IMG/VR virus record: IMGVR_UViG_3300029792_000005
Location: 1 to 31,334 of that record
Direction: 5' to 3' (one strand)
Origin: a virus
Taxonomy: Duplodnaviria; Caudoviricetes
Length of the DNA stretch: 31,334 nt
Shown here: in pieces, positions 9,838 through 31,334 of the stretch
Layout of the letters: the number at the start of each line of letters is the position of its first letter
Position numbering within the stretch: position 1 is the first letter of the stretch
Notes under the pieces: generated by a model
Told to the model about the DNA's origin: nothing
Databases searched by the model: none
The model's input: the letters and a program-made list of their open reading frames with translations, nothing else
Position numbers and translations under genes: made by a program

Positions 9838-10025
9838 ATTTTTGGATTCATTTTAGCAAAATCATTCTCCAGCTCTACATAATCAAGATCAAGCTGTTTA
9901 AGGATCTCTCTGCAATTTTCCAGATCCTCTTGATGATCTTGTAATCCATAATACTGGATCTTTGTAAGAATGCCTTTATAAACATTCATGTAAGTGATTT
10001 TTAATTCATAAAGTTTTAATACCAT
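9834..10025 (-). CDS. Hypothetical protein
   Basis: 63-aa ORF with ATGA overlap. Confidence 0.65.
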   Translation of the reverse strand: MVLKLYELKITYMNVYKGILTKIQYYGLQDHQEDLENCREILKQLDLDYVELENDFAKMNPKI

Positions 10026-10029
10026 AATT

Positions 10030-10158
10030 TTAATTTAAGTTTAACAATTTATCTATCCAATACTCTAATTTTAAAAAGAGCAGAATGATGATCATGCAAA
10101 AAATTGATGTAATTATATACATGATCCACCATTCTAATTTTTCTCTAAAATTTCTCAT
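10030..10158 (-). CDS. Small membrane protein (42 aa, not in ORF track)
   Basis: MRNFREKLEWWIMYIITSIFCMIIILLFLKLEYWIDKLLNLN; ATGA overlap; fills the gap. Confidence 0.65.
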   Translation of the reverse strand: MRNFREKLEWWIMYIITSIFCMIIILLFLKLEYWIDKLLNLN

Positions 10159-10646
10159 TGGCATGATTTTATAATGGCATTGCCATTGTTATCAAAATAT
10201 TTTTTGATCAAAATATCCCAACCCTCCAGGCCGAGCTCTCCTCTGCATTTGTAGCTGATATTATTTCTAGTCCATCCGGATTGGCCTAATGAGATCCCAT
10301 AATATTCTTTAACTCTTGAAACAGCTGTTTTGATGTCAGTTGCAATAGTGTGATATGATTTCTGATTTATGCCATAGCCTTTTTTGGTTTTAAGGATCTC
10401 CCCTCTTTGCAAATATTTCATAAAAACTATATATGATTTTTCAAATCCATTAAAGTTTTTACCAAATGAGAATCTAATTGCAAAATATGTTGATCCAGGT
10501 TTTCCCCAGATAGCAATTTTCTTTTTTGATGCAAACCCCCTCTCCAGGAGATTTGTTTTGTTGAACTTGCACAGCTGAGGGATCTCAAATGATCCCTCTG
10601 CATTTGGCACTTCGAACAATACTGATTTTGTTTTAAGTTTTTTCAT
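10155..10646 (-). CDS. Hypothetical basic early protein
   Basis: 163-aa ORF. Confidence 0.7.
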   Translation of the reverse strand: MKKLKTKSVLFEVPNAEGSFEIPQLCKFNKTNLLERGFASKKKIAIWGKPGSTYFAIRFSFGKNFNGFEKSYIVFMKYLQRGEILKTKKGYGINQKSYHTIATDIKTAVSRVKEYYGISLGQSGWTRNNISYKCRGELGLEGWDILIKKYFDNNGNAIIKSCQ

Positions 10647-10650
10647 GTAA

Positions 10651-11223
10651 TTAATTTTCGTTTATAACTCCTAATTTAAAAACAAGATCAGGCTCATTAT
10701 TGTTTACAATATCATCAGTAATGATCTGCTCTAATTGCAATTCTAATTTCCTGAACTTTTTTCTATAAATAGTATTAAGCCTTTTATTTGCTGGATCTAT
10801 TGATCCAGGATCTGCAATCTCTTTCAATTCTTGATCAAAAAGAAAATGATTCATTTTCATGATCTGATTATATTCAGCTTTTAATCTTATAAGATCCCAT
10901 TCTGATTTAGGCTTTTTTACATTATCATCAGCATTTGAATAGATCCTTACAAATTCAGTTTCTGAAACTCTAATCCAGGATCCAGATAAACTCCAATTAT
11001 GTAATTTTCTAAAATCAATACTAAATGTATTTTCGTGGAAAAATAAAATCCAGGCATCAGTGTACTGAGTTTTTTTGCCTCTATTCAAAGTTAGTTCAAC
11101 CCTAACTCTAACTGGCCGATTTGCTACATCAGCATTTTTTAATTTATTAAGATCTGTAATTCTAGCTCTTAAAAAATTCTCGTTAAATTTTTCAATTTGT
11201 GTTTTTGTGTTTGTGTTTTTCAT
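10651..11223 (-). CDS. Hypothetical early protein (start revised to MKNTNTKTQ)
   Basis: ATG at 11223 has A-rich context; the track's extension to 11280 runs through the ribozyme. Confidence 0.7.
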   Translation of the reverse strand: MKNTNTKTQIEKFNENFLRARITDLNKLKNADVANRPVRVRVELTLNRGKKTQYTDAWILFFHENTFSIDFRKLHNWSLSGSWIRVSETEFVRIYSNADDNVKKPKSEWDLIRLKAEYNQIMKMNHFLFDQELKEIADPGSIDPANKRLNTIYRKKFRKLELQLEQIITDDIVNNNEPDLVFKLGVINEN

Positions 11224-11240
11224 TTTATTAATATTTGTTT

Positions 11241-11300
11241 GACAAAGAACATCCCCCAGCTGGAGGATGTTTTCGGCCATTGAGGCCTCATCAGTTTGCC
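11241..11300 (-). ncRNA. Type I hammerhead ribozyme
   Basis: GGCAAA-CUGAUGA-GGCC(UCAAU)GGCC-GAA-AACAUCCUCC(AGCU)GGGGGAUGUU-C-UUUGUC: complete core, stems I-III paired, UUC cleavage triplet. Confidence 0.93.
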
Positions 11301-11669
11301 TTAATCTAATAAGTGAGAATAATCAACATTATCTATTCTAACAACATTGTTAGTTACTCCTCCGAAAACTTTGTGAGATCCATTTTGAGTAACCCAAACT
11401 CTTTCTCCACCAGTACACACCTCTTTGCCAGAAAATATTTTTCTGTAAGTTCTAAAAGAGATAAAATTTGTAGCATTAGGATTTAAAGGAAAGCCTCCAA
11501 CTTGATCAACTACTCCCTCAACAAAGCAATTATCTGAATTTTCAAAATCGTAAGATCTAACAAAATCTCCAACTTTGAATTTTTCGTTTGATGTTCTTGC
11601 AACCTTTAATGTTGGATTAAGAGGATTGTTTAAAATGTTTTTGTTTGTGTTTGTGTTTTGTGTTTTCAT
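11301..11669 (-). CDS. Hypothetical early protein, possible SH3-like barrel
   Basis: FKVGDFVRSYDF...FVEGVV; first gene after the large intergenic region. Confidence 0.7.
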   Translation of the reverse strand: MKTQNTNTNKNILNNPLNPTLKVARTSNEKFKVGDFVRSYDFENSDNCFVEGVVDQVGGFPLNPNATNFISFRTYRKIFSGKEVCTGGERVWVTQNGSHKVFGGVTNNVVRIDNVDYSHLLD

Positions 11670-11694
11670 GTTTTTTGTTTTTATTATTATGATG

Positions 11695-11702
11695 CTAATA
11701 TA
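11695..11702 (-). promoter_or_regulatory. Variant -7 promoter element of the early operon
   Basis: TATATTAG (one mismatch to TAnnTTTG) with long AT-rich upstream tract. Confidence 0.45.
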
Positions 11703-11930
11703 TAAAAGTATTTTTTAATTTTTAATCTAAAATGAAAATATTTTTTTATTTATTTTTTTTTACAGAGGGGAATTTCGTTTCCTGGCACTTCTCGAAATTT
11801 TGATATACTGATACCACAGAGGCATCAAATGCCGGGAAATCGCTTAAAAATGGCCTTAAAATGGATGTATGATTTTGCTAAAAAACCAAAAAAATCTTAA
11901 AAAAATAGGTAAAAATTACAATAAATCAAC

Positions 11931-11958
11931 AAAAAAGGCCTGAATTTCTCCAGGCCTT
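11931..11958 (-). terminator. Intrinsic terminator
   Basis: AAGGCCTG-8 nt-CAGGCCTT followed by T tract on minus strand. Confidence 0.8.
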
Positions 11959-12004
11959 GACAAAAAACTAACACAAAATTATTCAAAAAAACATGAACAA
12001 TTCT

Positions 12005-12331
12005 TTAAAATGGGAGATCATCTCCATCATTAACATTAAGTATTGGCTCAGTAGTTTGATCATTATTCTGAGCTTTTTGAGGCTTAAAATTGTTGAATTT
12101 GAAAGTATAAGATCCATAATCATTTTTCAGGATCTGAAACTTAAATTGAATATTCCCATTATATTCTTGTTTTGCATCATCCAAATTTTGCCCTAATTCT
12201 TTGATCTGTTCGATCAATAGTTTTGGAGTTATTACTCCATCACAAACAACAAAATCTGGAGCCTTTGGATTTCTTTCAAAGGTTTTAATGCCAGTTATTA
12301 CTAAAGGATTTTTCTTATTTTGATTTTCCAT
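12005..12331 (-). CDS. Putative single-stranded DNA-binding protein
   Basis: Acidic C-terminal tail DGDDLPF; follows putative annealase. Confidence 0.55.
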   Translation of the reverse strand: MENQNKKNPLVITGIKTFERNPKAPDFVVCDGVITPKLLIEQIKELGQNLDDAKQEYNGNIQFKFQILKNDYGSYTFKFNNFKPQKAQNNDQTTEPILNVNDGDDLPF

Positions 12332-29522: not shown

Positions 29523-31334
29523 TTTTTATTTTTTTCATTAAATAATTTAAGGCATTTGCCAATTGTTTAGGCAATGATGCAAGCCATTCATCAACAACTG
29601 AAATTAGATCATCAAATAATTCTGGATTAAATTTCCTAAATACATAATTCCCAAAATATTTATATTGAAATGCCTCAGCAACAACTTCAGCCAATCCATT
29701 TCTATTCATGTAAGCAACATCATGGCCATATCCAGCAAGTCGTGGATAATATTTTGAGATCCCAAATAATCCATCCATAGTATCAATGGCATAGATCATC
29801 TGCTGATTTATTTCATACCTTACAGCAAAAGGATTGATATTTTTATTGCCATATTTTTTAAGTGTTTCTAAAGCATTTTTATAAACATCATCTCCATAAA
29901 TTTGGATTAATCTGTTTTGAACAAATAAACCTATTTCATCAGCTGATGCTCCAGCTTGCCTCATTCGTGATATTGTGCTTGCTAGTTTAGAATAACTCTC
30001 ATCAAACATTGATGTAAATTTTTTATATTGTTTTAATCCAGTTTGGCCGACATATCTCTGAGCAAATTTTTTCCAGATTTCATTTCCAAATCTATAAGGT
30101 TTATATGATCCCCAGTTTTTAATTCCTATCCCAAAATAATCATCAAGAGCATGGCCAAACTCATGCATAAATGTCCTAACCTGACTTGTTCTCCCAAAAG
30201 CTCTGGATAGTTGCATTTTTTTCTCAGATGGCCTATAAAACTCTTTAATGTTTTTTCTTGCCTTAGTTATAAATAGCCTTAGTTTATTTAAAGGCTGAGA
30301 TCTGTTTATAATAGAAATATAATCATCCAGATCAGCTCCAAATCCTTTTAATTCCTCAACATAATTTCTCATCTGATCAGAAAATTTTGCATAGAGATCT
30401 CCCTCATCAGATCTCCTTTGAGTTTCTCTTATTGATCTTAACAGATCATCAATTTCTTTGGGAGGTGTAATGGTTGCTCCTCCAGATGTTGGCAATATTC
30501 TTGCAACTCCAGTTGAAACCAGATCTCCAGCTCCTCCAGGTGTATTAGAAACTAATCCAAATCCGACATCAACAAGATCTCCACCAACAACTCTCTCATT
30601 ATAAGTTTTTGGAATATAAAAAGCCTTACAAGTACAATTACAAACATTGCCAGCTGATCCAGCTGGATCTCCAGGAAAACTCATTAGATCTGATTTTCCA
30701 TCTGGAGCTATAACCAGGAATTGTTCATGTTCAGGTATAGTTTCTCCATCCAGCTCCATGTGGCCATCTCTTGAGGTTGGCAAAAAAGATGATTGCCATG
30801 TTTTATTAAGAGATGATTTATCAAACATTGTAAAAGCTGATTCTCTCATTGCCATATTTGATGCTGTTGTTGTTTCAGTTCTTACGATCCTAGTTGCTTG
30901 AACTTTTGATAAATATGTCAGCTGTTTTCTTATGATCCTAGTTTGCTCAGGAACTCCCAGAGCCATAAATTTAGGATCTCTCATTAATTTAGAATAAAGA
31001 TTGTTCAATTGTTTTCTTTGATTTGCTGATAATCCAGTAATTCTCCTTGTTCCAATTTGAGCTGAAATATTTGCAAATGTTTCCTCCCAAGCTGTTTGAT
31101 AATTTTTAGTTTCAAGATCCTTAGTTGCAAATTTTTCAAAATTGTTAAAATACCAGTTTGCCATTGACATGCCTACCCTAACATATAAAAATTTATATGC
31201 CTTTAACCAATCCTCTTTTTTAAATAAAAATGGAAAATCTGTTCGGCCAGTAGTTAGAAATTGATCTATTGTGGAAAAATATTTATCCCTATAAAATTTG
31301 CTCCAGGATCTTATTTGTTTCCTTTCGACAATTT
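29506..31334 (-). CDS. MuF/SPP1 gp7-like minor head protein with C-terminal zincin metallopeptidase-like domain (allele B; true start is across the junction at 232)
   Basis: RIVRTETT, KTW, R.GH..LDG, FPGDP.G...NVCNCTC; then HEFGH and EVVAEAF; frame is open to the window end. Confidence 0.88.
   Translation of the reverse strand, partial: IVERKQIRSWSKFYRDKYFSTIDQFLTTGRTDFPFLFKKEDWLKAYKFLYVRVGMSMANWYFNNFEKFATKDLETKNYQTAWEETFANISAQIGTRRITGLSANQRKQLNNLYSKLMRDPKFMALGVPEQTRIIRKQLTYLSKVQATRIVRTETTTASNMAMRESAFTMFDKSSLNKTWQSSFLPTSRDGHMELDGETIPEHEQFLVIAPDGKSDLMSFPGDPAGSAGNVCNCTCKAFYIPKTYNERVVGGDLVDVGFGLVSNTPGGAGDLVSTGVARILPTSGGATITPPKEIDDLLRSIRETQRRSDEGDLYAKFSDQMRNYVEELKGFGADLDDYISIINRSQPLNKLRLFITKARKNIKEFYRPSEKKMQLSRAFGRTSQVRTFMHEFGHALDDYFGIGIKNWGSYKPYRFGNEIWKKFAQRYVGQTGLKQYKKFTSMFDESYSKLASTISRMRQAGASADEIGLFVQNRLIQIYGDDVYKNALETLKKYGNKNINPFAVRYEINQQMIYAIDTMDGLFGISKYYPRLAGYGHDVAYMNRNGLAEVVAEAFQYKYFGNYVFRKFNPELFDDLISVVDEWLASLPKQLANALNYLMKKIKNESII
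31149..31334. repeat. Imperfect terminal direct repeat, copy 2
   Basis: Aligns to 1-186. Confidence 0.95.

Follow-up and report, generated by a model that had tools for sequence, protein, structure and literature searches.

The window analysed here is the whole virus record IMGVR_UViG_3300029792_000005 (Caudoviricetes; 31,334 bases), in which two small genes on the minus strand are separated by a ribozyme motif at positions 11241–11300. Neither the upstream gene (11301–11669; 122 aa) nor the downstream gene (10651–11223; 190 aa from the ATG at 11223) was assigned to a PHROG family. The 122-aa gene is the first open reading frame (ORF) after a terminator-like hairpin with a U-run (11935–11958, minus strand), which ends the preceding transcription unit, and after a putative −7 promoter box (11695–11702, minus strand) with one mismatch to TAnnTTTG, the −7 consensus of Bacteroidota-type promoters. 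On the basis of the hairpin and the promoter-like box, the 122-aa gene is likely the first gene of an early unit; a perfect TAnnTTTG box is found upstream of the first early gene of a sister phage (L133). The genome contains portal, capsid, exonuclease and replication-initiator genes. We infer a Bacteroidota host from the GC content of 32.5%, the A-rich leaders that lack a Shine-Dalgarno sequence, and the best matches of the primase/helicase (32–36%), which include Cellulophaga, Tenacibaculum and Flavobacterium phages.

Read on the minus strand, the segment at 11241–11300 is confirmed as a complete type I hammerhead ribozyme motif, in which stems I, II and III have 6, 4 and 10 bp, with the full catalytic core and the cleavage triplet UUC. 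Stem I pairs 11300–11295 with 11246–11241 and is followed by the core stretch CUGAUGA (C3 to A9; 11288–11294, with C3 placed at 11294 by the descriptor match). Stem II (11275–11287) pairs 11287–11284 with 11278–11275 and carries a 5-nt loop, UCAAU, for which a tertiary contact is predicted from conservation. GAA follows at 11274–11272, and stem III (11248–11271) pairs 11271–11262 with 11257–11248, contains one G-U pair and is closed by a tetraloop; its pair probabilities lie between 0.67 and 1.0 in every context folded. All core positions are present (C3, U4, G5, A6, N7, G8, A9, G12, A13 and A14, the A15.1–U16.1 pair and H17), three helices surround the core with a purine-pyrimidine (G-C) pair at the base of stem II, and both ends of the motif lie in stem I while loops cap stems II and III, which is the type I topology. 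The first-pass annotation had named a type I hammerhead with these stems on this strand, and sequence, fold and descriptor all agree with it.

The hammerhead fold is both the minimum free energy and the centroid structure of 11236–11305 (−25.8 kcal/mol; z −3.11), and 2 of 200 shuffled sequences reach this stability. A search of both strands of the genome with a type I descriptor returned a single match, at 11241–11300 with stems of 6/4/10 bp. In 200 dinucleotide-shuffled windows the mean number of descriptor matches was 0.33 at the loosest setting (stems of 3/2/3 bp) and 0.02 at 4/3/4, and no match occurred at 5/4/6 or 6/4/10. A covariance model (R2), for which 54 of the 123 phage hammerheads of the subtype described below served as training rows, with the window ribozyme and its relatives left out, scores the motif at 57.4 bits (rough E-value 6e-14) against 14.6 bits for the next match in the window, although these rows were gathered by a pattern derived in part from the window motif. 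Neither the descriptor, which covered type I, nor R2 detected a second hammerhead in the window; other ribozyme classes were screened with Rfam.

Rfam itself, which the first-pass annotation had recommended as a check, does not report the motif. At gathering thresholds no Rfam family matched anywhere in the window; at E ≤ 10 over 10000–12100 the 10 matches included no hammerhead family; and RF00163 (Hammerhead_1) searched alone over the genome at E ≤ 10, with a gathering threshold of 34 bits, gave no match. Since Rfam also failed to detect any of 20 subtype loci, drawn from the 127 listed, its silence is not evidence against the window ribozyme. This ribozyme belongs to a sharply defined subtype, missed by Rfam at all 20 loci tested, that may hold an uncharacterised tertiary contact.

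Hammerhead numbering on the descriptor match places the predicted scissile bond 3' of C17, between 11247 and 11246 on the minus strand. The predicted 5'-OH product would begin with a 23-nt A-rich leader (11224–11246) ahead of the ATG at 11223; both the cut and the leader length coincide with those originally predicted. The leader lacks a Shine-Dalgarno sequence and has adenines at −3, −6, −12 and −13, the positions at which adenine favours initiation in F. johnsoniae according to the available part of PMC6847099. At the other end, the final A of the TAA stop codon of the upstream gene (11301–11303, minus strand) is the near-invariant adenosine A2.7 of the subtype (122 of the 123 listed members), and two further conserved adenosines, A1.7 and A1.8, lie 3' of stem I at 11240 and 11239. 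Because these three positions are conserved in the subtype, the element probably runs past 11241–11300, taking in A11301 of the stop codon at one end and A11240 and A11239 beyond stem I at the other. One assembled contig from an RNA library (X2; eight of the 13 runs listed, low-depth contigs), which may derive from DNA, matches 11263–11417 without differences and stops short of the cut site; contigs X7 and X8, of unspecified kind, span this site, and none of these assembled contigs shows RNA ends.

A compact subtype of type I hammerheads

Judged by its sequence, the window ribozyme is a member of an abundant, compact type I subtype that is characterised by a 6-bp stem I, a U-N-A-N-U loop, which the UCAAU of the window fits, and conserved flanking adenosines. 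With a first pattern, carrying stem II of the window ribozyme, 125 distinct matches were obtained from viral contigs; 118 of them can be closed into a hammerhead (81 type I and 37 type III). A sense ORF starts within 60 nt in 63 of 78 of the type I matches, versus 10 antisense, and an upstream stop codon stands at gap −1 or 0 in 23 of 77. Several loci found with this pattern (L004–L126) represent a second type I subtype with a stem I of 4–5 bp, a longer stem II and a stem II loop that often contains TGG or TAGC; with an A-A-G-C-like tail after the motif, they are likely a form with a pseudoknot between loop II and the tail. A pseudoknot of this kind was considered for the window's own subtype and rejected, as the table of its 123 listed members contains no complementary flanking positions.

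A second pattern, which fixes only the core and two loop bases, matches an estimated 1,300 or so stored IMG/VR viral stretches. In the 127 loci listed there are 132 distinct matches, of which 124 are of type I and have all 4 bp of stem II, four are of type III and four do not close. Stem I has exactly 6 bp in 112 of the 124 listed type I members. Conservation was counted in the 123 of these with enough flanking sequence, and is strong at several positions that the pattern left free: an adenosine directly 5' of stem I (A2.7) in 122, the closing G-C pair of stem I in 107, an adenosine directly 3' of stem I (A1.7) in 110 followed by a second one (A1.8) in 91, and a U as the last base of loop II in 91. 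The window ribozyme agrees with every strongly conserved position that was not fixed by the pattern. Conservation of the unpaired A2.7, A1.7 and A1.8 along with the last loop U suggests a tertiary contact between stem I and stem II. The subtype pairs covary far above both controls, in an alignment (that of R2) whose rows were picked for pairing, so that pair counts lean towards structure, and in which two of the 54 sequences are out of register at their 3' end. The cleavage triplet is GUC in 102 of the 123 listed members and UUC, as in the window, in one; UUC is expected to be cleaved more slowly than GUC.

The position of these ribozymes relative to genes is also regular. An ATG-started sense ORF lies within 60 nt of the cut in 91 of 116 listed members, versus 5 antisense, with a median leader of 25 nt. 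In 38 of 119 listed members, an ORF that is 45 aa or longer is closed by a stop codon at gap −1 or 0. Counted over stop triplets, 38 of 55 at gap −1 or 0 close such an ORF compared with 18 of 101 at gaps 1–15 (Fisher p 3e-10), and 6 of 47 do so at gap −6. The 38 upstream ORFs of these listed members belong to 36 protein families and end in TAG (18), TAA (17) or TGA (3). By these counts, the upstream stop codon often supplies the conserved adenosine. The window ribozyme had been described as precisely inserted between its two genes: its placement is real and non-random, but it is ordinary for the subtype, in which the stop stands at gap −1 or 0 in 38/119 listed members and the leader has a median of 25 nt.

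The subtype extends beyond metagenomic viruses. R2 matches 42 of 48 loci in bacterial and archaeal genome contigs, many of them from Bacteroidota and several from Nitrosopumilus; among the latter (L272, L286, L295, L304 and L316), two genomes carry two copies each. Matches to R2 also occur in Flavobacterium phage elemoA_7-9A and in Pelagibacter phage Jormungand; both are cultured, and cleavage and function are thus testable during infection. In elemoA_7-9A (vB_FspP_elemoA_7-9A; L320:2937–3063, NC_055852.1), stem I is identical to that of the window, and the TAG of an unannotated 21-codon ORF overlaps the ribozyme; GenBank places an antisense hypothetical CDS, gp68, over the ribozyme, which may be spurious. 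The Jormungand hammerhead (L319:2994–3062) lies in the early region, 3' of two genes annotated as ardA and 5' of MarR, integrase and RNA polymerase genes, and the annotation of gp49 reaches about 50 nt into it.

Exchange of the junction among close relatives

Close relatives differ in the genes that flank the ribozyme. L134 has the upstream gene of the window and a homologous ribozyme followed by another downstream gene; its contig was the sole match in a pattern search for close homologues. This ribozyme preserves the core and each of the 20 pairs, with three two-sided changes (two in stem I and one in stem II) and two one-sided changes relative to the window, and the G-U wobble of stem III has moved by one position. 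The covariation that the first-pass annotation had sought in related phage contigs is therefore found in these three two-sided changes, and it is the pairing that is conserved in relatives rather than the MAENILQL peptide, which an extended reading of the downstream ORF would encode and which L134 does not retain. In L137 the situation is reversed: the downstream gene is that of the window and the upstream gene is another, and the near-identical ribozyme has one change, which places U opposite U in the distal part of stem III. The stop codon of the upstream gene is TAG in L134 as well as in L137, and the G of this codon is the first base of stem I.

The sister phage L133 contains both flanking genes of the window joined without a ribozyme, by a plain 7-bp GC hairpin. 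This hairpin (L133:2846–2894), preceded by an AAT repeat, stands in the place of the ribozyme and is possibly a functional substitute. The same ribozyme-free junction is found in three metagenome contigs (L322–L324), and a fourth (L321), identical to the window over 519 bases, has the ribozyme; these four contigs may represent the same two viruses assembled repeatedly. The ribozyme thus behaves as a swappable cassette among relatives, and it is dispensable, since L133, whose junction is shared by L322–L324, joins the same genes without it. L133 and the window thereby constitute a natural pair with and without the ribozyme for the same two genes. In L138, a 60-aa gene is present where the window has the 122-aa gene and the ribozyme. 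The early genes of the window (11669–11640 and 11223–11190) and of L133, L134, L137 and L138 open with similar A/C-rich sequence of low complexity, and their N-termini are rich in Lys, Asn, Thr and Gln; these shared gene starts could serve the swapping of cassettes, either as a site of recombination or as an enhancer of initiation.

Proposed role and relation to known hammerheads

Hammerheads in phages were described by Perreault et al. in 2011 (PMC3088659). According to the available part of that paper, they flank variable genes in prophages and such transcripts are cleaved; cleavage of tandem phage hammerheads of this general kind was observed in E. coli as well as in vitro; and processing into mRNAs of operon or gene length was already proposed. 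The window ribozyme shares with them the canonical core, the intergenic site on the sense strand beside small variable genes and the proposed mRNA processing. It is also comparable to the hammerhead of haloviruses HF1/HF2 reported there, which lies 13 nt before an early-gene ATG and for which a transcript 5' end was mapped within 3 nt of the cut. The prophage clusters described in the same text flank single genes in one operon, whereas the window has a single copy. The window ribozyme is thus a known kind of phage element, and the locus alone adds one more example; in the accessible portions of two reviews (PMC6155905, PMC6765202), the role of hammerheads in prokaryotes is still regarded as an open question.

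Many examples in the available part of PMC3088659 use tertiary contacts that were not identified there. Compared with the hammerheads in that part, the subtype of the window has no pseudoknot; its variable loop II positions do not point to Watson-Crick partners, and its flanks have fixed adenosines. With RF00163 (Hammerhead_1) and the Schistosoma-type ribozymes it shares the type I topology, the open stem I, the core and the G-C pair proximal in stem II, but its stem I ends at 6 bp without the internal-loop extension and its stem III is long and stable. Type I hammerheads of bacteria and phages with a long helix III are reported in the accessible part of PMC13725137. In the literature searched, which comprised few subscription papers, neither the signature of flanking adenosines nor the overlap with the stop codon was found described, and the subtype may well be in print. 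The subtype itself may already be among the 2011 sequences of PMC3088659: the Cenarchaeum type I hammerheads in that dataset, as far as its available part goes, and our Nitrosopumilus matches hint in this direction.

For the ribozyme, the fold, core, covariation, position and cassette-like exchange among relatives are established. The reading that we consider rather probable is that it cuts an early polycistronic mRNA 23 nt before the next ATG, so that upstream and downstream genes come to lie on separate RNAs with lifetimes of their own. Both genes would be co-transcribed from the early promoter near 11700, and the folded ribozyme would cleave 3' of C11247. The 6-bp stem I, for which −5.3 kcal/mol is predicted as a duplex, would then fall apart, leaving the upstream gene on a short RNA that closes with the hairpins of stems II and III and carries a terminal 2',3'-cyclic phosphate, and the downstream genes on a 5'-OH RNA with an open, A-rich 23-nt initiation region. 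The ribozyme probably sits on the stop codon because this codon supplies the conserved adenosine, the most compact arrangement. We picture it as a portable punctuation mark that would move with the initiation region among swappable early genes and exert no control specific to these two. An original suggestion that it serves to detach this particular first gene is overstated: both flanking genes change among relatives, and L133 has both without a ribozyme. The processing reading is favoured by the rarity of the fold, the paired changes in L134, the regular spacing to sense ORFs and stop codons in the subtype, the mosaic relatives, and the published cleavage and halovirus data. Against it stand the dispensability of the ribozyme in L133, the atypical UUC triplet, the low predicted probability of stem I with flanks and the small predicted effect of cleavage on leader accessibility.

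Insulators of the RiboJ type offer a parallel, in which a hammerhead cut shortly upstream of the start site leaves a defined 5'-OH leader independent of upstream sequence. RiboJ is engineered, and its hairpin is kept on the downstream product; by contrast, the window ribozyme, as any type I hammerhead, would leave both hairpins on the upstream product and a nearly unstructured leader downstream.

Two more elaborate forms of regulation were considered and rejected. Cleavage is not expected to act as a switch that frees the start region, as the gain in predicted leader accessibility is small (0.70–0.81 before cleavage, 0.86 after). With 40-nt flanks, the predicted probability of stem I is 0.12 in the window and has a median of 0.2 in the subtype (n=108), in a calculation that ignores tertiary contacts. 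When naked RNA is folded, the predicted partner of the core is the final stretch of upstream codons, and masking them raises the stem I probability from 0.12 to 0.83. Gating of the ribozyme by ribosomes through this anti-core helix is nevertheless not a selected feature by our tests: 53 of 200 shuffled upstream sequences were equally inhibitory, across 106 subtype members real flanks permitted slightly more pairing than shuffled flanks did (0.50 vs 0.42), and the helix is absent in L137 while L134 misfolds in another way.

Separate from the processing of early mRNA is a broader and more speculative proposal, which we advance tentatively and regard as rather unlikely when taken as a whole: that the compact subtype is apparently undescribed, that its U-N-A-N-U loop II and the unpaired adenosines at the end of the 6-bp stem I form a new tertiary contact, and that a stop codon supplies one of these adenosines in about a third of cases, the window included, so that the terminating ribosome would time cleavage to upstream translation. 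The cultured phage elemoA_7-9A, with its TAG-overlapping member, makes this proposal directly testable.

Several other explanations of the locus were weighed against mRNA processing. The ribozyme could be a near-neutral passenger that cleaves, spreads in recombining early-gene cassettes and persists since cutting does little harm. Its presence in L134, L137 and L321 and its absence from the same junction in L133 and L322–L324 are consistent with this, as are the variable flanking genes, seen likewise in the available part of PMC3088659. Against it, pairing and periphery are strictly conserved across diverse phages, and the orientation is fixed and the spacing tight relative to genes of 36 families, which implies selection on both activity and position; we regard a mere passenger as unlikely. 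An equally unlikely role is that of a down-regulator, whereby host nucleases would gain access, through cleavage, to the upstream piece or the downstream early mRNA, as in glmS, and early expression would be shortened in place of a yield of stable separate messages. The glmS transcript is degraded by cellular RNases after cleavage (PMC6765202, available part), and E. coli RNase E still quickly cuts 5'-OH RNAs that have several single-stranded sites; yet simple 5'-OH RNAs are poorer substrates of this enzyme than monophosphorylated ones (both from the accessible part of PMC2948425), and in the listed members the cut would leave the leader whole and of consistent length (median 25 nt) with, in the window, the adenines that favour Flavobacterium initiation.

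Less probable still is that the window copy has decayed or is weak as a ribozyme and serves chiefly as a stable hairpin, be it a terminator, a pause site or a 3'-end protector, like the GC hairpin of L133. A terminator scan does flag 11267–11253, within stem III, the L133 junction carries its 7-bp GC hairpin, few subtype members have the triplet UUC, and a weak stem I is predicted in context. However, the tail after the 11267–11253 hairpin is interrupted and poor as a U-tract, the two-sided changes of L134 in stems I and II would be needless for a terminator, and the window ribozyme carries all core and subtype-signature bases, none having been lost. We give almost no credence to the view that the segment is coding, with 11280 as the start of a 209-aa protein whose first 19 residues it would specify, even though the frame is open from there, as it is in the near-identical L137. 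In L133 the orthologue has its start at the position corresponding to 11223, with the alignment beginning at residue 22, and the downstream ORF of L134 begins after its ribozyme without any extension; these comparisons bear out the first-pass reading of the 11280 extension as an ORF-calling artefact and of 11223 as the true start. Moreover, the ATG at 11280 lies inside loop II/stem II and is preceded by G-rich sequence, unlike other starts in the genome.

Two observations concern the record outside the early region. It starts and ends (1–232 and 31101–31334) in one and the same head-morphogenesis reading, the protein sequences of the two ends being similar without being identical, and is classed as linear by IMG/VR. 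The portal gene (225–2480) is unusually long, with 751 aa that include an acidic linker and a C-terminal extension past the portal match.
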